Of a stretch of DNA of 64,000 nt, positions 49,429 to 59,955 are shown in pieces; the first letter of the stretch is position 1, and each line of letters starts with the position of its first letter. Source of the stretch: Desulfobacterales bacterium. Its GTDB lineage: Bacteria; Desulfobacterota; Desulfobacteria; Desulfobacterales; UBA2245. The notes beneath the pieces are model-generated. The model saw only the letters and a program-made list of their open reading frames with translations. It had not been told where the DNA came from and did no database searches. The position numbers and the translations under genes are program-made. The DNA is taken from assembly GCA_040771865.1 (NCBI GenBank), contig JAXGZF010000005.1, positions 310,001 to 374,000 on the forward strand. Direction: 5' to 3'.

Positions 49429-49583
49429 TGATGGCTTCGTAACAAAGTCCAATTTCTGCGTCGCGCTGCACGCCCCATCATGACGGCGTACGCTGGGTAC
49501 GCCTCACCCCTCGGAATTCGCGGCGCCTTGAACTTGAACTTTTTACCTTGTCATCACAATTTCGACTTTTTACAAGACCATCA
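49429..49583. mobile_element. 155-bp MITE/REP-like element
   Basis: Imperfect terminal inverted repeats TGATGGCTTCGTAACAAAGTC and revcomp TGATGGTCTTGTAAAAAGTC. Internal hairpin GGCGTAC...GTACGCC. AGGA directly repeated on both flanks. Confidence 0.8.
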
Positions 49584-49595
49584 AGGATGAGCAAT

Positions 49596-52157
49596 ATGGG
49601 TCACTTGCAGGTTTATGAAGTATTTCCAGCCATTCCCGAGCGTTTAATGTTCCTCGAAACACTTTCCCGGAATCTCTGGTGGTCGTGGAACTTTGAGGCC
49701 ATCGATCTTTTCCGCCGTATCGACCCCCGTTCCTGGATGCAGGCCAAGGGGAACCCGATCGTATTCCTGGCCATGATTCCGCCGGAACGATACGATGCGA
49801 TGTCAAAAGACGAGAGCTTTCTGTCGCATCTGGAACATGTCCGTCAGAATTATGAAAAAGAGATTCTCGCTTCGGTCGAACCGGAAGGCTATTCCTTCTG
49901 TCCGGACGAATTTGTCGCCTATTTTTCCATGGAATTCGGAATCGATGCCAATCTGCCCATATTTGCCGGCGGACTGGGAGTGCTTGCCGGCGATCATCTC
50001 AAGGCATCATCGGATATGTCTTTTCCGCTGATCGGCGTAGGTCTGCTGTATCGGGAGGGCTATTTTCAACAATTTATGGATCAGGATGCCTGGCAGAAGG
50101 AAGAATATCCCGAAACGGATTTTTATCATCTTCCCATTTCCCGGGCCCGGGATTGCTCCGGAAAAAACCTTGCGATCACCGTCAGCGGGCCGGATGGAGA
50201 CATCCATGCAGCCGTATGGAAACTCAATGTGGGGCGTGTTCCACTTTATCTTCTGGACACCAATATCGGTAAGAATTCAAGGGAGCATCGGGATCTGACT
50301 TCCAGACTTTATCCCGGCGAATCCCAGCAGCGTCTGGCACAGGAGATACTTCTGGGCATCGGGGGTATGCGTGCGCTGTCCCGGATGGGGCTGGAACCTG
50401 CCGTTTGTCACATGAACGAGGGGCATTGCAGCTTTTCGAGTCTGGAACGACTGGCCCAGACCATGCAACGATACGGGGTGAATCTGAAAACCGCAAAAGA
50501 GATTGTCTCTCGAACCACGGTATTTACCACCCACACCCCGGTGTCCGCCGGATATGACGAGTTCTACCCGGATATGGTCAAGCCCTATCTCAAGGACTTG
50601 GAATCATCTTTGGGCATTCCGGTTGACCAGATTATTACCTTAGGGCAGTTGAAGGATGCCGGCCCCGGCGCTCAGTTTTCCATGTTTATTCTGGGATTGG
50701 GTATGGCGCAGTACTGCAACGGCGTCAGCCAGCTTCACGGATCTGTCGCCAGAAAAATGTGGCGCCATATCTGGCCGGGAAGGGGACAGGATGAGATTCC
50801 GATTTCTCATGTGACCAACGGGGTTCATATCCCCACATGGATTTCCGAGGAGAACTACCAGCTTTTTGAAAGATACCTTGGCCCGGAGTGGATTAAACGG
50901 CTGTTGAAGGAGGATATTGCCTCCAAAATTGATGAGATTTACGATGAAGAGCTCTGGCATGCCCATGAATTGAACCGAATGCGGCTGATCCGGGTCTGCC
51001 GGGACCGTATGGCCAAGCAGTATGAACGGATCAATGCCTCCAGAAGGACCATTGAAGATGCGGAAAGAGTGCTGGACAAAAATGTCCTGACCATCGGATT
51101 TGCCAGAAGGTTTGCGACCTATAAACGGGCCAATCTGATTCTGCAGGATCCGGAACGGCTCGAAGCGCTTTTGACCGACAAGGACCGTCCGATTCAGATT
51201 GTCTATGCCGGAAAGGCGCATCCCAGGGACAACGAGGGAAAGGAACTGCTGCGTCAGCTCCTCCGGTTTATTCAGGAGCCCAAAATCCGCCGCAAAATCA
51301 TTTTTCTTGAGGGATACGACATGAACATGACCAAGCTGCTGGTCCAGGGAGTGGATGTGTGGCTCAACACGCCCCGGCGTCCGCTCGAGGCCTGCGGAAC
51401 CTCGGGCATGAAGGCCGCTTTGAACGGCGTTCTGAACCTCAGCATTCTGGACGGCTGGTGGTGCGAAGGGTATTCGCGGGAAACCGGATGGCGCATCGGC
51501 AACGGAGAAGAATACAATGACGCCATGTTTCAGGATGCCCTGGAGAGCCGCGCGCTTTACAATATTCTGGAGAACGAGGTGATCCCCTGTTTCTATGAGA
51601 GAAAGGACGGCGACATTCCGGTGGAATGGGTTCGAAAGATGAAAGCCTCCATGAAGATGGCGCTGAAGGGTTTTTCCAGCCGGAGAATGCTGGCCATCTA
51701 TTATGAACGCTATTATGCGCCGGCGGTTCAAAGGCGACGAGAGCTGACGGCCGACGGAGCTGCCGAAGCCCGGCTTCTGGCCGATCGCACGGAAAAATTC
51801 CGCACGCTCTGGAAATATATTTTCGTTGACGCCGCGGTCAAAAGCGATGAAGGTCCATTTCGGGTCGGGGATTACTTTTCGGTTGCCGCCGAGGTGTATC
51901 TGGGTGACATTCGTCCCGAAGAGGTGGATGTGGAGCTTTACTACGGCCGTTACAAGACCATCTACGCCGTGGAGGTCGGGGAGACTGAAATCATGGATAT
52001 GACCGAAAACATGGGGCATGGGCGATACCGCTACGAGGGCCGGGTTCGCTGCCGGGTCTCGGGACGTTACGGTTTCAACGTAAGGGTGGTGCCGCGGGGA
52101 GACGATCAGATCAAATATTCGCGGGAATTTATCACCTGGGCTGAAAAGTCCCTATAA
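49596..52157 (+). CDS. glgP: Alpha-glucan (glycogen) phosphorylase
   Basis: NLWWSW, AYFSMEFG, GGLGVLAGD, NEGH, ARRFATYKR and EACGTSGMKA (PLP lysine). Start is 49596 or 49587. Confidence 0.96.
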   Translation: MGHLQVYEVFPAIPERLMFLETLSRNLWWSWNFEAIDLFRRIDPRSWMQAKGNPIVFLAMIPPERYDAMSKDESFLSHLEHVRQNYEKEILASVEPEGYSFCPDEFVAYFSMEFGIDANLPIFAGGLGVLAGDHLKASSDMSFPLIGVGLLYREGYFQQFMDQDAWQKEEYPETDFYHLPISRARDCSGKNLAITVSGPDGDIHAAVWKLNVGRVPLYLLDTNIGKNSREHRDLTSRLYPGESQQRLAQEILLGIGGMRALSRMGLEPAVCHMNEGHCSFSSLERLAQTMQRYGVNLKTAKEIVSRTTVFTTHTPVSAGYDEFYPDMVKPYLKDLESSLGIPVDQIITLGQLKDAGPGAQFSMFILGLGMAQYCNGVSQLHGSVARKMWRHIWPGRGQDEIPISHVTNGVHIPTWISEENYQLFERYLGPEWIKRLLKEDIASKIDEIYDEELWHAHELNRMRLIRVCRDRMAKQYERINASRRTIEDAERVLDKNVLTIGFARRFATYKRANLILQDPERLEALLTDKDRPIQIVYAGKAHPRDNEGKELLRQLLRFIQEPKIRRKIIFLEGYDMNMTKLLVQGVDVWLNTPRRPLEACGTSGMKAALNGVLNLSILDGWWCEGYSRETGWRIGNGEEYNDAMFQDALESRALYNILENEVIPCFYERKDGDIPVEWVRKMKASMKMALKGFSSRRMLAIYYERYYAPAVQRRRELTADGAAEARLLADRTEKFRTLWKYIFVDAAVKSDEGPFRVGDYFSVAAEVYLGDIRPEEVDVELYYGRYKTIYAVEVGETEIMDMTENMGHGRYRYEGRVRCRVSGRYGFNVRVVPRGDDQIKYSREFITWAEKSL

Positions 52158-52233
52158 AACCGGTGTCCGTTGCGGGTGCAGCTGAGGATGAAAAAGTTCA
52201 GAGCTGTTTTCGTATCACAAGGAGTTTTCAACT

Positions 52234-53763
52234 ATGAGCGGGTCTGCAAAAAATCCCCGCGTACTGATTGTCACGCCGGAAGTCACCTATCTCCCCAAAG
52301 AGATGGGGCACATCGCCGTCGGCCTCAGCGCCAAGGCCGGAGGCCTGGCCGATGTGTCGGCGGCGCTGATCAGCGCGCTTTTCGATCAGGGCGCCGATGT
52401 CCATGTGGCGCTTCCGAACTATCGTTCGCTGTTTAACGCCCAGCTGGCGCCGATACTTACAAAAGAGCTGAGCATCATTCGGAAAAAAATGCCAGACGAC
52501 CGGATTCATCTGGCCGAAGACCGGGCTTTTTTCTACATGCAGGGGGTCTATTCCAGTTACGGCGAGGAAAACATCAAGATCGCGCTGGCCTTTCAGCGGG
52601 AGGTCATCAACAACATCCTTCCATTTGTGCGGCCCGATCTGATTCATTGCAACGACTGGATGACCGGTCTGATTCCGGCCGTCGCCAGAAAAATGGGCAT
52701 TCCCTGCCTGTTCACCATTCACAACATTCACACCGTCAAGGAAACGCTGGCCCGAATCGAGGATATGGGAATCGATGCCGCCTATTTCTGGGAACACCTG
52801 TATTACGACAACATGGCCTACGATTATGAGCGAACCCGGAGCGTGAATTCCGTGGATTTTCTGACCAGCGGCGTGTTCGCGTCTCACTTTGTCAACACGG
52901 TCAGCCCGACCTTTCTGGTCGAAGTGGCTCAGGGGAGACATCATTTTATCAAGCCGTCTCTTCAACAGGAACTGGCCAACAAACTCTACGCCGAATGCGC
53001 GGTCGGCATCCTCAACGCGCCGGATCCGTCGTATGACCCATCCACGGACACCTCGGTTTTTCAGCAGTACACCGCGGAGAATGTGATGCCGGCAAAGCGC
53101 GCGAACAAGCGGCTGCTGCAAAGGACCATGGGGTTGATCGAGGATCCGAGGGCGCCCGTATTTTTCTGGCCTTCCCGTATGGATTCCGTTCAGAAGGGAT
53201 GCCAGCTTCTGGCAGAGATTCTGTACGCGATTGTCTCCCGTTACTGGAAGGAGAAGCTTCAGGTCGTTTTTGTGGCGGACGGAGAATTTAAAAAGCATTT
53301 TGAGAATATCGTCCGGATTCACGGCATTGGAGACCGGGTTGCGGTCTGGGGATTCGACGAGCGCATGGCCCGGCTGGCCTATGCGGGCTCTGATTTTATA
53401 CTGATGCCCTCGCGTTTTGAGCCCTGCGGTCTGCCCCAGATGATCGGCCCCCTGTACGGAGCGCTTCCCGTGGCGCACGACACCGGAGGGCTTCACGATA
53501 CGGTGGAACATCTGGATGTGGAGCGGGGAACCGGGAACGGCTTTATCTTCAAGCATTATGATTCTCAGGGCCTTTCCTGGGCCGTCGACCAGGCCATGGC
53601 CTTTCACAAGCTCCCGCAGTCCGTCAAAAGGGCTCAGATACGAAGGATCATGAACCAGAGCGCGGTCCGATTCACCCATGCGGTGTGCGCCCGTCAATAC
53701 ATCGAGCTTTATGAAAAAATGCTTCAGCGTCCGCTGATCGTCAATCAGGGGCAGGGTGCATGA
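52234..53763 (+). CDS. glgA: Glycogen/starch synthase (GT5)
   Basis: KAGGLADV, IHCNDW, FTIHN, QKG, MPSRFEPCGLPQM and TGGLHDTV motifs. Confidence 0.92.
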   Translation: MSGSAKNPRVLIVTPEVTYLPKEMGHIAVGLSAKAGGLADVSAALISALFDQGADVHVALPNYRSLFNAQLAPILTKELSIIRKKMPDDRIHLAEDRAFFYMQGVYSSYGEENIKIALAFQREVINNILPFVRPDLIHCNDWMTGLIPAVARKMGIPCLFTIHNIHTVKETLARIEDMGIDAAYFWEHLYYDNMAYDYERTRSVNSVDFLTSGVFASHFVNTVSPTFLVEVAQGRHHFIKPSLQQELANKLYAECAVGILNAPDPSYDPSTDTSVFQQYTAENVMPAKRANKRLLQRTMGLIEDPRAPVFFWPSRMDSVQKGCQLLAEILYAIVSRYWKEKLQVVFVADGEFKKHFENIVRIHGIGDRVAVWGFDERMARLAYAGSDFILMPSRFEPCGLPQMIGPLYGALPVAHDTGGLHDTVEHLDVERGTGNGFIFKHYDSQGLSWAVDQAMAFHKLPQSVKRAQIRRIMNQSAVRFTHAVCARQYIELYEKMLQRPLIVNQGQGA

Positions 53764-55775
53764 ATGATCCGCGGATCGATACGGAGCTGCAAAGACTGAT
53801 TGCGGATGATTCCCTTCTGGATTTATATCGGGATGCAATTCGCCGGCGTCTGGAAAAGATTGCCGAAACCCGTAGCCGTCTGACTTCCGACAGGATGTCT
53901 CTGCCTGATTTCGCCTCGGGCCATGAGTACTTCGGCCTGCATTTCCGGGAAAACCAGTGGATTTTCCGGGAGTGGGCGCCGAACGCCACGCACATCTTTC
54001 TGATCGGACAGATGACGGACTGGCTCGAGAAACCATCCTTCCGTCTGGAAAGAATCAGCAACGACGGGGTCTGGGAATTAAGGATTCCGGCCCAGCGGAT
54101 TTGTCACAAAGATCTGTATCGCCTGAAGGTTTACTGGCCCGGCGGCCGGGGAGACCGGATTCCCGCCTATGCCAGGCGGGTGGTTCAGGATCCGAATACG
54201 CTGATATTCAACGCCCAGGTCTGGGCGCCGGATTCTTATCCATGGCGGTGCCTGAATTTCAAGCCGCCCGAAGGTCCGCTGCTGATTTACGAGGCTCATG
54301 TGGGAATGGCCCAGGATGCCGAACGCATCGGCAGCTTCGATGAATTTTCCGGGAAGATCATCCCCCGCATCGTTGCCGCCGGATACAACACCCTCCAGCT
54401 CATGGCCGTTCCGGAGCATCCCTATTACGGGTCGTTCGGATACCACGTATCGAACTTTTTCGCCGCATCCTCCCGGTTCGGAACCCCGGAAGAGCTGAAG
54501 AATCTCGTCGATACGGCCCATGAGGCCGGGCTGCGGGTGATCATGGACGTCATTCATTCCCACGCCGTATCCAACGAGGTGGAAGGCCTGAGCCGTTTCG
54601 ACGGAACCTCGTATCAGTACTTTCACGAAGGCCCCAAGGGCCGACACCTGGCCTGGGATTCCCGGTGCTTTGACTACGGAAAGCACCAGGTGCTTCATTT
54701 TCTGCTGTCGAACTGCCGTTTCTGGCTTGACGAGTACCGTTTCGACGGGTTCCGGTTCGACGGCGTGACCAGCATGCTGTACTGGCATCACGGGCTGGAA
54801 AAAGCCTTTACCAGTTATGCGGATTACTTTGATTCGGGAGTGGATGAAGACGCCCTGACCTACCTGGCCCTGGCCAACGAGGTGATTCACACAGTGAAAC
54901 CCGATGCGGTGACGGTTGCCGAAGACATCAGCGGAATGCCGGGGCTGGCCGCTTCACGGGACAGGGGCGGAATTGGCTTTGACTACCGGTTCGCCATGGG
55001 CGTTCCTGACTTGTGGATCCGTCTGATCAAGCACGTTGCCGACGAGAACTGGCCCATGGGAGGGCTGTGGTACGAGCTGAACAACCGGCGTCCGGAGGAG
55101 AAGACCGTCAGCTACGCCGAATCCCACGATCAGGCCCTGGTCGGCGACCAGACCCTAATCTTCCGTCTGATCGGATCGGATATCTATGAATACATGCATG
55201 TGCGCCATAAAAGTCTGCGCATCGACCGGGGCATCGCCCTGCACAAGCTGATCCGTTTCATCACCCTGACGACCGCGGGCAGCGGGTATCTGAATTTCAT
55301 GGGAAACGAGTTCGGACATCCCGAATGGATCGATTTTCCAAGGCCGGGAAACAACTGGTCTTACCGGTACGCACGCAGGCAATGGCGCCTGGCCGATGCC
55401 GAGGATCTGAAATACCGGTTTCTCGGCCAATTCGACCGGGACATGATCGAACTGGTCAAGGCCCGCCGAATCCTGGAAAGCCCCTGGCCCCGGCTGCTCA
55501 AGGAGCATGACCTGGACAAGGTTATCGCTTTTGAGCGGGCCGGTGTGATATTTGTGTTTAATTTTCATCCCACCCGGTCCCATGTCGACTATCCGGTGCC
55601 GGCCGCTCCGGGAAAGTACCGGTTGATCTTCGACAGCGACCGGCCTGCTTACGGCGGTCATGACCGGCTCGTGCCCGATCAGTGTCATTTTACGCTCAAC
55701 GGAACGGATCCCGCCTGTTTTCTGAGCCTTTACATTCCCACCCGGACCGTCCTGGCGCTTTGCCGCGAGGCCTAG
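53760..55775 (+). CDS. glgB: 1,4-alpha-glucan branching enzyme
   Basis: FREWAPNA, IYEAHVGM, EHPYYGSFGYHV, DGFRFDGVTSM, YAESHDQ and FMGNEFGHPEW motifs. ATGA overlap with glgA. Confidence 0.95.
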   Translation: MNDPRIDTELQRLIADDSLLDLYRDAIRRRLEKIAETRSRLTSDRMSLPDFASGHEYFGLHFRENQWIFREWAPNATHIFLIGQMTDWLEKPSFRLERISNDGVWELRIPAQRICHKDLYRLKVYWPGGRGDRIPAYARRVVQDPNTLIFNAQVWAPDSYPWRCLNFKPPEGPLLIYEAHVGMAQDAERIGSFDEFSGKIIPRIVAAGYNTLQLMAVPEHPYYGSFGYHVSNFFAASSRFGTPEELKNLVDTAHEAGLRVIMDVIHSHAVSNEVEGLSRFDGTSYQYFHEGPKGRHLAWDSRCFDYGKHQVLHFLLSNCRFWLDEYRFDGFRFDGVTSMLYWHHGLEKAFTSYADYFDSGVDEDALTYLALANEVIHTVKPDAVTVAEDISGMPGLAASRDRGGIGFDYRFAMGVPDLWIRLIKHVADENWPMGGLWYELNNRRPEEKTVSYAESHDQALVGDQTLIFRLIGSDIYEYMHVRHKSLRIDRGIALHKLIRFITLTTAGSGYLNFMGNEFGHPEWIDFPRPGNNWSYRYARRQWRLADAEDLKYRFLGQFDRDMIELVKARRILESPWPRLLKEHDLDKVIAFERAGVIFVFNFHPTRSHVDYPVPAAPGKYRLIFDSDRPAYGGHDRLVPDQCHFTLNGTDPACFLSLYIPTRTVLALCREA

Positions 55776-56119
55776 CAGGGGACGTTCGTTCGAGATTGCT
55801 TCCAGTCTTACAGCCCTGTTCTGATGCAATTCCTCACACCAGGATCGGTCGGTTATCGATATAAAACCATTTTTTAACAGGCGCGCGGGCCCGGCCGTAC
55901 AAGCGATGCGAACTCCAGGCCTTTCGCGGGAAATGTTTTTGCTTGACGGTCCTTAAGATGGGTTGTAGGAAATGCTTTGCACCATCCATGCGCCGCAAGA
56001 TTTCTCAATCCGTTCCATTGCAGCACTATTTATGATCTTGAAAACGTGAGGCTAAGGCATGAAACACGTACTTGTGGGATGCGCCTGATGGGATATCAAC
56101 ACCTCGGCGCTCCGCGCCT

Positions 56120-56218
56120 TAGGAACCAAACGTTGGACCGGCAAATTTTCCCGAATAACAACCGGCAATCGACTTGCCGTTATCCGGTGAAAATTCGCCC
56201 GTCAACTCGGCGTTATGG
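56120..56218 (+). other. attC site 0
   Basis: R'' ..GGAAC, spacer CAAAC, L'' GTTGGAC, long imperfect stem, L' GTCAAC, spacer TCGGC, R' GTTATGG. Confidence 0.8.
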
Positions 56219-56227
56219 GTGAAATTG

Positions 56228-56662
56228 ATGAAAGCATTAAAACGGCAAAGCACAAGGCTTGAATCAGAAGGAGCTGAATTTCTTGTTCTTGGTCATTTAT
56301 TGATTCTCGGCATCCCAGCTTATAAAAACTATACAAATATGCCGGGATATGATCTCGTAGCTACCAATCCTGACAAAAATATTTCAAAACGTATTTCTGT
56401 GAAAAGCCGATGGACGACTACTGCAACTGGATTCATTATTAAGAACTTTGATTGTGATTTTGTCGTTGTAGCAAAACTTAACAGAGGTTCAAGAGACGGT
56501 AACGGTAAAGTGCTGCCACCTGAGTTTTACGTTTTGCCAGTTCACATTGTAGAGGATGCACCTCGAAGCAAGGGATGGAACAGAATATCATTTGGTAGAA
56601 TTCCTAATTTCCAGTCTTATCGGGATCGTTGGGATCTAATAAGAAAATCTTTGAAATATTGA
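56228..56662 (+). CDS. Cassette 1: small PD-(D/E)XK-superfamily nuclease
   Basis: EGAEFLV...PGYDLVA...RISVKSR follows the E...D...(S)xK pattern of Hjc-like restriction-fold nucleases. Confidence 0.75.
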   Translation: MKALKRQSTRLESEGAEFLVLGHLLILGIPAYKNYTNMPGYDLVATNPDKNISKRISVKSRWTTTATGFIIKNFDCDFVVVAKLNRGSRDGNGKVLPPEFYVLPVHIVEDAPRSKGWNRISFGRIPNFQSYRDRWDLIRKSLKY

Positions 56663-56672
56663 TGGAATAATT

Positions 56673-56728
56673 CCATAACAAAGTCAATACAGCCGATCAC
56701 TTCGCTCCGGCTGATTTTTTCGTTGGCA
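56673..56728 (+). other. attC site 1
   Basis: R'' CCATAAC is the exact complement of the upstream GTTATGG. L'' AAT(A)CAGCCG pairs with L' CGGCTGATT with one extrahelical base. R' GTTGGCA. Confidence 0.85.
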
Positions 56729-56739
56729 GAAAATAAAAT

Positions 56740-57429
56740 ATGGCGAATGAGATAATTCCATATATTGAAATGTGTCGCCGTGAAGGTGTTAGCCTTCAGC
56801 GCGGTATGAACTTCGGTCTTGGAAGAAACCATTCTGTTATTCTCATGTCTGTCAGTCCGGGCGCACCGTATGCAGATAGATTTGAGGATGATGGTTCCAC
56901 CATTGTTTACGAAGGGCATGATGTTCCCCGGTCAACGAATAACCAAAACCCCAAAATAAGTGATCAGCCTGAGTTCTCACCATCTGGTAAACTCACCGAG
57001 AACGGAAAGTTTCATCTTGCTGCACAAGAATATGTTTCCGGCAAAAAACAACCTGAAAGAGTTCGTGTTTACGAAAAGATTAAACAAGGAATATGGTCGT
57101 ATAACGGTGTCTTTCATCTTGTAGATTCATGGAGAGAAAAAATCAACGGTCGCTCTGTATTCAAGTTCAAACTTACTGCAGTTGAGGGCGAAGAAGATTT
57201 CACTTTACCTGTACCTGAACATTCAAAGGTACGCAGAGTCATACCTACATCGGTTAAGCTTGAGGTATGGAAAAGAGATGGTGGTAAGTGTACGAAGTGT
57301 GGCGCTACGGAGGACTTACATTTTGACCACATTATTCCTTGGTCAAAAGGTGGTTCATCAAACACAGCAGCGAATATTCAATTGTTATGTGGGAAGCACA
57401 ACTTAGCAAAGCATGACAAAATTGAATAA
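56740..57429 (+). CDS. Cassette 2: HNH endonuclease with SRA-like N-terminal domain
   Basis: C-terminal RDGGKCTKCG...HFDHIIPWSKGGSS...NIQLLCGKHN. N-terminal SVILMS..PYADR..TIVYEG..N..PERVRVYEK...YNGVFHLVD resembles SRA-fold readers. Confidence 0.85.
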   Translation: MANEIIPYIEMCRREGVSLQRGMNFGLGRNHSVILMSVSPGAPYADRFEDDGSTIVYEGHDVPRSTNNQNPKISDQPEFSPSGKLTENGKFHLAAQEYVSGKKQPERVRVYEKIKQGIWSYNGVFHLVDSWREKINGRSVFKFKLTAVEGEEDFTLPVPEHSKVRRVIPTSVKLEVWKRDGGKCTKCGATEDLHFDHIIPWSKGGSSNTAANIQLLCGKHNLAKHDKIE

Positions 57430-57432
57430 AGC

Positions 57433-57484
57433 GGCCAACCAGTCGCTACAGCGGATCGCGCTCCCGCTGAGCTTTTCGTCGGCC
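57433..57484 (+). other. attC site 2
   Basis: R'' GGCCAAC, spacer CAGTC, L'' GCT(A)CAGCGG pairing with L' CCGCTGAGC, spacer TTTTC, R' GTCGGCC (GTC instead of GTT). Confidence 0.8.
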
Positions 57485-57494
57485 AGGAGATGAT

Positions 57495-58052
57495 GTGGAG
57501 AACTTTCTGGAAGCAGACTACGGACTCGGCCCTCTGCGTGATGTTGAGGCCGCGATCGAGGCAGGGGTGCAGGCGTTGTTTCGGCGCAACAAGGTACAGC
57601 CATGGTTCGACGGTCTGTGGATGAACGAATGCGGAGAAGTACTTCATGGCGCACTTCTTGTCGCCGCACAGGCATATTGTCTGTGCACAGTAGCCGACAC
57701 GAACGAGATCAGGAGAGGCAAAGGGCTCGAACCAGTCGACAAGATCGCTGCGTACCACGCTCATTCGGTCGTGCGGAGCGATCATTCAGTCGTGGAACTC
57801 GTCAACGCCGCCGCGAACTGCTTCAAGCATCGTGATGAATGGGGCGACAATTGGCCGCACAATGGGACGACACGCGCTCTGGCTGCCTACTCAATAACCC
57901 CGGCTACAGAGTTTCCTGTGAATGAGGCCATTGTGATCATCACGACTGAACTCGGGTACCTACGGCTCTCAGACCTTCTCTCGGAGTGGCGCGAGGGGCT
58001 GATTCTGAAATCAAAGCAGGAAGGCCAACAACGCCTTCCATGCGACCGTTAA
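57495..58052 (+). CDS. Cassette 3: hypothetical helical protein, possibly HEPN-like
   Basis: AGGAG 5 nt before GTG; contains VELVNAAANCFKHRDEW; its 3' end runs into attC3. Confidence 0.7.
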   Translation: MENFLEADYGLGPLRDVEAAIEAGVQALFRRNKVQPWFDGLWMNECGEVLHGALLVAAQAYCLCTVADTNEIRRGKGLEPVDKIAAYHAHSVVRSDHSVVELVNAAANCFKHRDEWGDNWPHNGTTRALAAYSITPATEFPVNEAIVIITTELGYLRLSDLLSEWREGLILKSKQEGQQRLPCDR

Positions 58053-58103
58053 TCCGCGCCAGCGACGGTGCGTCTCCTCGGCGCATGAAGGCGGGCGTCC
58101 GTC
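58023..58103 (+). other. attC site 3 (degenerate right end)
   Basis: R'' GGCCAAC; CGCCTTC(C)ATGCG pairs with CGCATGAAGGCG; the R' position reads GTCCGTC. Confidence 0.7.
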
Positions 58104-58120
58104 GAAAATAGGGAGATCGC

Positions 58121-58540
58121 ATGAAAGTATTCACAATTGGATATGGCGGGCGAGGCAAAGATGACTTCTTGATGCTATTGAAATCCAATGGCGTAAAGAC
58201 CATCGTTGATATTCGCTTGCGTCCTGATCGTGCAAGTATGGGAATCTGGGTAAAGGCGAAGACGACCGACAAGGGTATCGAGAGCTGGCTCCGAGAGGCA
58301 GGTATTGGTTATCGCTCCCTCATTGAGCTAGGTAATGTGTTTCTCGATTTTCCGGACTGGCAAGATCGTTACCGACAGTTGCTTGATTCTGCGGGAGAAT
58401 TGCTGACCGATCGGCTCAAAAGCGTTCCCGGGCCGATTTGCCTGCTCTGCGCTGAAAAGCGAGTTGTGGAGTGCCACCGACGGCAAGTAGCTGAATACTT
58501 GGCTGATCGAATGGGGGCACAGATCCAGCATCTGGAGTAA
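58121..58540 (+). CDS. Cassette 4: DUF488 family protein
   Basis: VFTIGYGG, IVDIRLRP and CLLCAEK...CHRR motifs; GGAG RBS. Confidence 0.88.
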   Translation: MKVFTIGYGGRGKDDFLMLLKSNGVKTIVDIRLRPDRASMGIWVKAKTTDKGIESWLREAGIGYRSLIELGNVFLDFPDWQDRYRQLLDSAGELLTDRLKSVPGPICLLCAEKRVVECHRRQVAEYLADRMGAQIQHLE

Positions 58541-58593
58541 CAAATACCCCCAGGTGCTGAATCCGATCGTGTCCCTCACGGGCCATCGCTACC

Positions 58594-59955
58594 CTACCGC
58601 TTATTCGCGCCGCGATTGCTGCCGCAGTCCCCGTTGTTTGCGCCGTCAGCCCGTTCTTTTTCCAGGACAAAAGAATCGTAAATTTCCCCTCTGGCATCAT
58701 AGGACTCGTACTGCAGGCGGTCTTCATCCACGCTGATCACCTGAAACAGCTGACGGCCTGTTCCGGTCTTATCCATGATGTCTTTGTACCGGTTGTCTGT
58801 TTCATAGTATTTCGGGCCGCAGACCGAGATCACATAGACCGTTCCTTTTTCAGTATCCGGCACACGGATGCTGTTTTTGAGCCTAGCGGAACGGCTGTAA
58901 ACATGATCATGGCCCTGGAGCACCAGATCGACTGAATATTTGTCGAAAACAGGAACAAAAAGATGGTGGAGAGGGGAATCCGCTTTTGCTTTGCGTTTTT
59001 TTCCAGTCGAATAGACGGGCTGGTGAATTGCGGCAATGGTCCAGCGCTGAGGATTTTCAGACAAGACGCCGTCCAGCCATACGGCCTGTTTCTCAAGCTG
59101 TTCATTGCCGTTGAGCATCACAAGCCTGACGCCCTGATAATCGATGAAATAAACGGTTTCCTTCAAGCCCTCCGGTCCGTTTTCAGGGAGGGTGAAATGG
59201 GGTCGCCACAGCGGAAACAGTTTAAAGTTATCGCCATGAACGGTTCTTTTGTCGGGATATTCATGGTTTCCGGGCAGCATCATCATCGGGGTTGTTCGCG
59301 GAATCCAGCCAAAGGCGTCAAACAGCCCGGCCCATTCTTCATCCTGATCACCATTGTCCACAAGATCGCCGACGAAAAGCCAGAAGGCCGCGTCCGGCGC
59401 TGTTTGATACGCCGTACGAAATATTCGGGAACACATGGAACGGACTTCTTCCTGAGGATCGCCAAGATATACAAATTTAAATGAAGACGGAGTCTTGCTC
59501 GCTGTTTTGAACTGATTCCACTCGCTCCAGAACGCCCCGTCGCCGACCCGGTAGGCATACAGCGTATCCGGCAGCAGGGAATCGAAGATCGCCGAATAAT
59601 GATACGCCGTTTTCCGGTCGTGTATGGCAACCGGTTCCTTGTCCGCCTGAATTGTCTGTGCTGTTTCGATCAGATCCGATGATTCGTTCACCCGCGCAAT
59701 CTGGGCCTGGGGGCTTGAAACCTCGGATATCGTTCGCCAGGTAACCGCCTGGCTGAACCATGGCTGCTGAGTCAGATTCAATATGATTCTTTCGGGCAGA
59801 AGCTGATGCGGGCAGGCGTTTTCTGAAAAGGCTTCCGGGTTCAGGCATGTTCCATCTTCCTGTTTGATAACACCCAGACAGCCCAGCAAAGCCAGAATCA
59901 GAATGCCCGCACAGACGCTCAAATATCTGCTGGATGCGCGATGAATATTTTTCAT
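58594..59955 (-). CDS. Exported purple-acid-phosphatase-like metallophosphoesterase
   Basis: Signal/lipobox-like N-terminus, FN3-like domain (LLPDTLYAYRVG), and GDPQ, GDLVD, GNHE and GHDH motifs. Confidence 0.92.
   Translation of the reverse strand: MKNIHRASSRYLSVCAGILILALLGCLGVIKQEDGTCLNPEAFSENACPHQLLPERIILNLTQQPWFSQAVTWRTISEVSSPQAQIARVNESSDLIETAQTIQADKEPVAIHDRKTAYHYSAIFDSLLPDTLYAYRVGDGAFWSEWNQFKTASKTPSSFKFVYLGDPQEEVRSMCSRIFRTAYQTAPDAAFWLFVGDLVDNGDQDEEWAGLFDAFGWIPRTTPMMMLPGNHEYPDKRTVHGDNFKLFPLWRPHFTLPENGPEGLKETVYFIDYQGVRLVMLNGNEQLEKQAVWLDGVLSENPQRWTIAAIHQPVYSTGKKRKAKADSPLHHLFVPVFDKYSVDLVLQGHDHVYSRSARLKNSIRVPDTEKGTVYVISVCGPKYYETDNRYKDIMDKTGTGRQLFQVISVDEDRLQYESYDARGEIYDSFVLEKERADGANNGDCGSNRGANKR

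Follow-up and report, generated by a model that had tools for sequence, protein, structure and literature searches.

The DNA window considered here, a 64,000-nucleotide stretch of a Desulfobacterales genome (G000:C5:310001-374000, G000 being the genome under study), carries an array of integron cassettes without an integrase gene (intI). The array lies between the glycogen branching enzyme gene glgB, ending at 55775, and a convergent metallophosphoesterase gene, ending at 58594, and holds four co-oriented open reading frames (ORFs). It is probably a decaying array, built at an integron attachment site (attI) that had no intI of its own, by an integrase supplied in trans, and is now nearly frozen. 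Over the first 1.5 kb of the interval, the G+C content is 42-43%, compared to ~55% in the flanks. The related genomes used for comparison are the congener G001, G176 and G023; numbered L loci are attI, array or homolog loci in related genomes or metagenomes, and numbered X runs are sequencing runs.

Four attC hairpins on the + strand alternate with the ORFs (sites 1-4: 56120-56218, 56673-56728, 57433-57484 and 58023-58103). The sequence-only reading of this DNA had described them as having an R''-spacer-L''...L'-spacer-R' layout with an extrahelical base in L'', and this layout was confirmed at all four positions, with spacers of 5/5, 6/5, 5/5 and 5/6. A covariance model of 62 positions was built from 18 attC sites adjoining intI in relatives, without any window sequence. 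Sites 3 (28.5 bits), 2 (25.9 bits) and 4 (20.3 bits) are its top three of eight matches at E<=10 in the 64 kb, the best unrelated match reaching 15.1 bits; three of the four sites are hence recognized by an independent model. Site 1 (99 nt) is too long for this model, and only an inner 33-nt piece was scored (13.4 bits). A structural scan of the whole genome gave 92 matches at a score of at least 11, a threshold chosen once the four sites had been seen and equal to the lowest score among them; the window array is the sole same-strand cluster of at least three. Run genome-wide on G000, the covariance model is no census: of 1010 candidates it scored only 150, and sites 2 and 4 were not among them. 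Site 1 folds better than its shuffles (bottom-strand z of -4.35), while sites 2-4 taken alone do not (bottom-strand z of -1.2 to -1.5). A generic repeat finder did not recover the four sites as one family, and Rfam has no match within 55700-58700.

At least two clustered, same-strand attC sites (three by the covariance model, four by the structural scan) with no intI nearby are what defines an attC site cluster that lacks an integron-integrase (CALIN), and the locus is almost certainly a real integron cassette array. It is not a complete integron, as neither intI nor attI adjoins the array in G000. Taken by itself, the array is ordinary. CALINs, their possible mobilization in trans and cassettes with defense genes have been published, as far as the available parts of the sources show (PMC4889954, PMC9668308, bioRxiv 2022.09.11.507474, 2024.07.02.601686; this limit holds for all works cited here), and further sources cover the same ground (bioRxiv 2024.07.02.601719, 2025.06.18.660453, 2025.10.10.680097, PMC8876359, PMC11347163, PMC10853773). 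Like the published CALINs (PMC4889954), the array is small and has no nearby intI; its attC sites, two or more in the same orientation within 4 kb, are separated by single ORFs.

The origin of the array becomes apparent from the alleles of the same chromosomal site. The left flank, glgB (53760..55775, + strand; Pfam CBM_48 and alpha-amylase), has a DNA identity of 93% in G001 and 92% in G176; the right flank, a metallophosphoesterase of the purple-acid-phosphatase type (58594..59955, - strand; Pfam), has 89% in G001. Between these two flanks, G001 has 3.25 kb of other DNA: a Septu cassette (PtuA, E 1.5e-161; PtuB, E 9.5e-68), a short gene-less cassette and a cassette encoding 290 aa. The G176 contig carries glgB and its leader at 92%, followed by a GNAT cassette and by genes for Vsr and a C5 methylase, with a type II restriction endonuclease of which only the start is present. 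No cassette is common to the three alleles: the cassette genes of the window are not syntenic in relatives, and the same site holds other cassettes. In both G001 and G176, the leader is shared up to window position 56102 and is followed by a segment of ~125 bp, with the GTT of the first cassette at its end. The two first cassettes differ, and each is joined exactly at the attI GTT. In general, the first cassette behind this attI class begins with the attI GTT, and its last element is the complementary core.

The search for this attI gave no match at the window array in G000. Alignment of the three alleles places a deletion junction at 56102..56103 (no strand assigned), where the ~125-bp attI is missing together with the 5' portion of a hairpin cassette that has no gene. 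One contig of run X2 has other, additional letters between 56102 and 56104, as expected of an undeleted allele. Very likely, the array descends from an attI site that has since been deleted in this genome; the sequence-only reading recognized the array correctly, but overlooked that the site had arisen from an attI and that this attI had been deleted. No attI would be required if cassettes had been inserted at a secondary genomic site (attG), a route put forward for small CALINs and for single attC sites lacking an integron-integrase (SALINs). This route has been demonstrated experimentally (bioRxiv 2022.09.11.507474, available part), and the window today is without attI. It is nevertheless highly improbable here and largely refuted by the full attI at the exact position in two related alleles, by the X2 contig and by the first element of the array, a tail piece from a family of cassettes that typically accompany this attI.

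Of 251 genomes of the order, 67 contain the attI class, with five copies in G000, all elsewhere, and four in G001. Among the best 30 GTDB loci, intI lies directly upstream on the other strand, whole or frameshifted, in nine; three have fragments and 18 have none. With the comparison limited to the 27 loci with at least 1 kb upstream, 15 are without an intI match, three of the 18 having less than 800 bp upstream. In metagenomes, 29 exact attI matches were found, and intI is present in five of the 16 with at least 800 bp upstream, several of these being near-duplicates. No account of an attI without intI, or of multiple attI, was found in the limited open literature, where some queries were unspecific. 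The published CALIN definition (PMC4889954, available part) ignores attI, which was searchable for few classes, whereas the present array can be traced to an intI-less attI that is kept in relatives and deleted in G000, with full turnover of the cargo at one site. The CALINs of Xanthomonas (bioRxiv 2025.06.18.660453) likewise occupy fixed chromosomal positions away from intI and show a progressive loss of integrase activity; in contrast to the allele-mates of the window locus, no attI is reported for them in the available part of that source.

Further copies of this attI occur in unusual settings. At G000:C7:182350-190000 (L036), an integron has an internally deleted intI and a shortened attI; the core pair of its first cassette is perfect, and another attI lies in the middle of the array, at 186678. 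At G000:C5:233631 and 236022 (L082), tandem attI copies each stand behind a near-identical leader of ~250 bp, and one reads GTC; among the cargo, judged by eye, are a restriction-like ORF, an ATPase of 654 aa and a pair resembling AbrB/PIN. On the metagenome contigs L140, L143, L151, L152, L163 and L167, attI lies inside arrays or directly behind attC, which suggests that attI fragments are able to travel within cassettes.

The absence of intI from the window, noted in the sequence-only reading, was verified and extends to intact copies in the genome as a whole. The TIGR02249 profile returned nothing over its cut-off in G000 (98% complete, 13 contigs; cassette arrays continue past the ends of C11 and C12, and a copy in an assembly gap is possible). 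With tblastn, five remnants were detected: a gene with an internal deletion (C7:182.4-182.7 kb), three fragments of the N-terminal part (C3:401.6 kb, C4:67.8 kb and, with 19 codons, C6:146.4 kb) and a C-terminal piece at C9:21.5 kb. There was no tblastn match near the array. Intact intI is present in 21 of 41 genomes of the order, two copies of it in G001, and the seven intact integrases compared from the class paired with this attI are 71-80% identical to each other.

These remnants bear on another origin, in which the array is the fossil of a complete integron: intI would have stood here until its deletion in the common ancestor, with the alleles differing only by later losses, occasional or independent of an integrase, from one long array. 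The repeated decay of intI beside attI in G000 (C7, C6, C3, C4, C9) fits such a history, as do the imprecise deletions at both ends of the window allele, and loss of intI is among the CALIN origins listed in the available part of PMC4889954. By contrast, the 330-bp leader was free of intI remnants by tblastn in all three glgB alleles, different first cassettes are joined exactly at the attI GTT in G001 and G176, and the complete lack of shared cassettes would demand a long ancestral array together with precise losses. We consider this history rather unlikely, and the action of IntI in trans, already proposed for CALINs (PMC4889954, PMC9668308, available parts), the probable one.

The ancestral site very likely consisted of the leader and an attI behind glgB, of a class that elsewhere stands beside a full intI, with no intI at this position. 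In trans loading, cassettes would have been inserted, removed or both by IntI made elsewhere, from another chromosomal integron or a transient mobile one, through recombination of a folded bottom-strand attC with attI or of attC with attC. The array may be transcribed as one unit, either from an upstream repeat or by read-through from glgB. Freezing would then have followed from the loss of attI, the change of two cores from GTT to GTC, the truncation of the last attC and the lack of an intact intI in the assembly, and cassette 1 alone would be readily excisable should IntI arrive.

The state of the attC cores accords with freezing. Sites 1 and 2 have the paired AAC/GTT core and paired L boxes with an extrahelical base, and cassette 1 is flanked on either side by a canonical site; site 2 (GTT core) has a near twin of the same geometry in G023. 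At sites 3 and 4, the R' core reads GTC and is unpaired with AAC, giving a bottom-strand G.T wobble. The window has GTCGGCC where a 73% homolog of cassette 3 starts, in the same context, with GTTGGCC; the GTC of the window is therefore derived. A broken fifth attC, of which only the left half is left, lies at 58535..58585 (+ strand; 89% over 28 nt by blastn), and a GAGTAAC resembling R'' overlaps the stop codon. Its intact form is found at G000:C3:208859, the same form ends the G001 array, and run X4 shows indels in this region. The last cassette, that of DUF488, thus ends in a half attC fused to the end of the phosphatase gene, with a core match of 4/7. It had been proposed that each cassette has a leading core complementary to its own trailing core, as in excisable circles. 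This is perfect for cassette 1 (GTTATGG/CCATAAC), reaches 6/7 for cassettes 2 and 3 and does not apply to cassette 4, which is without an intact attC; excisability is supported for cassette 1 only, given the GTC cores of sites 3 and 4 and the broken last attC.

For IntI1, the available part of PMC2811028 reports that T3>C is tolerated in one partner if compensated, with a 150-fold cost when both partners have it, and that a non-complementary core, tested at position 2, lowers recombination from 2.2e-3 to 6e-6. From these data, in which T3>C in both partners predicts poor recombination, we infer a reduced activity of sites 3 and 4; the uncompensated T3>C found there is absent from the tests reported in that part, and the reduction stays an analogy. 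Free excision thus seems open to cassette 1 alone, and most of the array gives the impression of being frozen. In run X4, which belongs to another study, sites 3 and 4 are spanned at ~96-98% identity, hence the order of cassettes 2-4 is common to another strain.

The first element of the array (56103..56218, + strand) is the 3' remnant of a cassette without an ORF, composed of multiple hairpins and ending in attC site 1. It aligns with attC-bearing elements located directly behind attI in L054, L071, L148, L151 and others. Members of this family carry no gene; they are hairpin chains of 170-200 nt in which attC half-sites are nested, and are extremely stable (z of about -10 in three members). 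Whole or shortened, as judged by eye, they stand directly behind this attI in 8 of 30 GTDB and 5 of 29 metagenome loci, and they also occur inside arrays; the L054 member lies at 1569-1771, and further members are at L077, L142, L144 and L162. A likeness of the attC arms to the internal repeat of attI, on both strands, is seen in the window element and in 4 of the 13 others scored, versus 0 of 35 other long attC sites, although the shuffle control for this likeness does not keep hairpin symmetry. A poor alignment yielded no net covariation term in RNAalifold (+0.7), so that the conserved structure rests on single folds. Rfam has no match in five loci with a hairpin cassette. The TAGGAAC of site 1 was considered as a damaged R'' and rejected, since it recurs in the family. 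Published ORF-less cassettes (PMC8876359, available part) are likewise gene-less with a normal attC and may hold the first position, but carry promoters or small RNAs, in contrast to the hairpin chains with nested half-sites described here. No description of hairpin-only cassettes was found in the limited open literature.

The best characterized cargo is the product of cassette 2 (56740..57429, + strand; 229 aa), in which the proposed SRA domain followed by HNH is indeed present: Pfam gives SAD_SRA at 30.6 bits (E 3.3e-7; cut-off 30.7) and HNH at E 8.2e-10. C184, C187, D196, H197, C217, H220 and N221 are invariant in 12 sequences, as are the SRA residues; from the general HNH motif, we take the former to be zinc ligands and the HNH active site. 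A search of PDB sequences returned only the SRA domains of plant SUVH5 and SUVH9 and the HNH of IscB; TagI was not returned at E<=0.01. An assignment to the HNH of IscB or Cas9d was rejected, as the NCBIfam matches remained below the cut-off. The architecture itself is characterized, TagI cutting DNA with 5-methylcytosine (5mC) or 5-hydroxymethylcytosine (5hmC) (PMC6212794, available part). Like ORF2, TagI and ScoA3IV of the same source combine an N-terminal SRA with a C-terminal zinc-binding HNH and stand alone without a methylase; compared to them, ORF2 belongs to a divergent, shorter subfamily. Its sequence makes it a well-supported restriction-type enzyme, a probable modification-dependent endonuclease for which 5mC-dependent restriction is likely; in the trans-loading model, the protein would cut 5mC/5hmC-modified foreign DNA. 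No C5 methylase gene was found in G000, and such genes occur in 1 of 14 genomes with a full-length SRA-HNH gene (G000 included) versus 15 of 40 controls (Fisher two-sided 0.043), a rarity that gives weak support to a 5mC target. An attC lies 3' of 3 of the 15 ORF2 homologs.

Cassette 1 encodes a candidate stand-alone nuclease of the PD-(D/E)XK fold (56228..56662, + strand; 144 aa; predicted fold match), which may act on DNA. The restriction-like core fold attributed to it is confirmed by the predicted structure (predicted local distance difference test, pLDDT, of 89): I-Ssp6803I is matched with Z 14.4 (root-mean-square deviation, rmsd, 2.5 over 119), NhoI with Z 11.0 and Hjc with Z 10.4, and the best 25 matches are nearly all nucleases. 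The match to PF11645 (E 0.0068) is below the cut-off, and the profile gave no meaningful match among PDB sequences. Among the 1757 homologs, E17, D42 and K59 are invariant in the 63 compared, and position 57 is Ser in 31 and Gln in 32. ORF1 thus differs from I-Ssp6803I, Hjc and the BisI family (NhoI, Eco15I; PMC11347163, available part) in having Ser for Gln in the QxK motif, and has no sequence-profile match to them.

The product of cassette 3 (57495..58052, + strand; 185 aa) belongs to an all-helical, unannotated, cassette-borne family with 51 homologs, HEPN-like at best. Pfam over 49 members gave nothing beyond three chance matches. The model (pLDDT 90.8) has HEPN SO_3166 as its best fold match (Z 7.3, rmsd 3.6 over 122), and several other HEPN entries follow, tied with unrelated bundles, for which a Z of 7.3 is within the chance range. 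Foldseek found nothing at E<=0.001, and there was no PDB sequence match. In the ESM Atlas, only unnamed clusters were returned, with HEPN families at 0.75, to be taken as a lead only. The RNase motif of HEPN proteins is R-x4-6-H. The invariant motif of the family is N108-x-F-K-H112, and in none of 49 sequences is there an Arg 4-6 residues before the His; HEPN-like, the earlier label, is at most tentative. Close homologs occur in Kiritimatiellae, Saprospiraceae, Vibrio and Pseudoalteromonas. Ten of 28 loci were inspected, the other 18 being distant (23-54% over short stretches); attC lies directly 3' in five of the ten, and others are in island-like contexts with core-site remnants. In L095 and L096 (Vibrio), the homolog lies directly behind a kinase-like ORF of ~400 aa, in an island- or prophage-like region with no intact attC.

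Cassette 4 (58121..58540, + strand; 139 aa) encodes a DUF488 protein, as had been read from the sequence: PF04343 is matched at E 6e-12 and 46.7 bits (cut-off 22.2), and the ESM Atlas clusters agree. PADLOC matches it to PDC-M45C (E 1e-14) and PDC-M19A (E 4.5e-13), but both candidate systems are incomplete, ORF4 alone matching subunit models and ORFs 1-3 none. No defense paper on DUF488 or on PDC-M45/M19 was found in the literature search.

The proposal that all four genes are single-gene defenses was not upheld: PADLOC (v2.0.0 of 2023, older than bioRxiv 2024.07.02.601686 and 2024.07.02.601719) gave no convincing system match for ORFs 1-3 and only subunits of candidate systems for ORF4. That at least one of the genes is anti-phage is likely, and that all four are is quite improbable. 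By gene, the case is good for ORF2 and fair for ORF1; for ORF3 and ORF4, it is plausible but unsupported. The best support comes from the context, the same slot holding Septu and restriction-modification genes in relatives. The anti-phage cassettes of Darracq et al. (bioRxiv 2024.07.02.601686) and Kieffer et al. (bioRxiv 2024.07.02.601719) are, in the available parts, similarly small and single-gene, with HNH, PD-(D/E)XK or HEPN-like products. In contrast to these, the window ORFs match no named system in PADLOC and the host is not a Gammaproteobacterium; the supplements may list homologs.

Alternatively, the cargo could be mostly neutral or selfish, silent or acting otherwise than in protection from phages. 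ORF1 is most similar in fold to a homing endonuclease and has Ser at the (D/E/Q)xK position, ORF3 is without the canonical HEPN Arg, DUF488 has no defense literature that was found and one allele carries a GNAT cassette. The RNA contigs of run X19 cover only 56002-56267, the 5' end of the array, and are no measure of expression. On the other side stand the SRA-HNH architecture, a characterized restriction type (PMC6212794, available part), the four intact frames with invariant catalytic-type residues, the Septu and restriction-modification sets of the slot and the frequent occurrence of defense genes among integron cassettes (bioRxiv 2024.07.02.601686, available part). Independently of how the array arose, a neutral or selfish cargo seems rather unlikely.

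Several observations weigh against a trans-loaded array with defense cargo. The data show cassette turnover without separating insertion from loss, and the differences between alleles could be explained by deletions from one long ancestral array with no new insertion. The two intact IntI of G001 are only ~50% identical to the class cognate to this attI, and the cognate copy in G001 is broken. The G176 metagenome-assembled genome is filed in another family in spite of the 92% identity, and its contig, which may be that of a mis-binned close relative, ends before the right flank. No excision or cassette-skipping joint was seen in runs X1, X2, X4 and X19, and a consensus promoter scan calls no + strand promoter upstream of the array. 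Association with attC is limited for the cargo: 12 of the 15 ORF2 homologs have none 3', and in a sample of 400 genomes attC accompanies 0 of 2 homologs of ORF1 and 0 of 1 of ORF4, the contig ending there. PADLOC recognizes none of ORFs 1-3 as a defense system. Finally, with two partial carriers included, the C5 methylase comparison becomes 2 of 16 versus 15 of 40 (p 0.11), and kin are not independent.

How CALINs originate, and whether they continue to trade cassettes, is an open question for which four possible origins are listed in the available part of PMC4889954. The present locus offers a direct test, with a fixed site, a defined attI, three alleles without a common cassette and no integrase beside them. 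If loading in trans is true, the number of integron capture platforms is underestimated by any tool that depends on intI or is limited to the attI of classes 1-3. As the slot is rich in defense genes, its uncharacterized cargo, ORF3 foremost, is a sensible choice for phage-defense screens. Tentatively, a split integron can be imagined in this order: numerous intI-less attI docks behind housekeeping genes would serve as swappable defense slots, loaded in trans by an only intermittently present integrase, often plugged at first by a hairpin-only cassette with attC arms copied from the attI repeat, and later frozen through loss of attI and GTT>GTC changes of the cores. The frozen set of the window would include in ORF3 (NxFKH motif) an undescribed single-gene anti-phage family carried by cassettes from Vibrio to Bacteroidota.

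Upstream of the array, a dispersed repeat (55938..56047, + strand) with about seven genome copies, defined by blastn and a listing of contexts, is promoter-like (TTGACG, 17 nt, TAGGAA). It is a possible substitute for the cassette promoter Pc, its activity being predicted from the sequence. The window copy has no match in Rfam. Other copies of this ~100-bp repeat in G000 lie at C3:207117, C3:96882, C3:177631, C6:113136, C7:397483 and C11:1944. As a marker of cassette arrays the repeat was rejected, since only three of the ~7 copies precede arrays and the others precede unrelated genes. A second intI-less array stands behind the same repeat at G000:C3:207100-211000 (L037), with a counterpart on G001:C17 (L041); L037 has two cassettes (ORFs of 325 and 193 aa) more than the G001 array at the same locus.

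Two sets of three 144-bp coding tandem repeats in L047 (4383-4806 and 7849-8272, in G000:C3:98.4-102.3 kb) are false attC matches. Within the window, the region preceding the array (49548-55775) is an ordinary glycogen operon-like run with a phosphorylase-like gene, a synthase-like gene and glgB.

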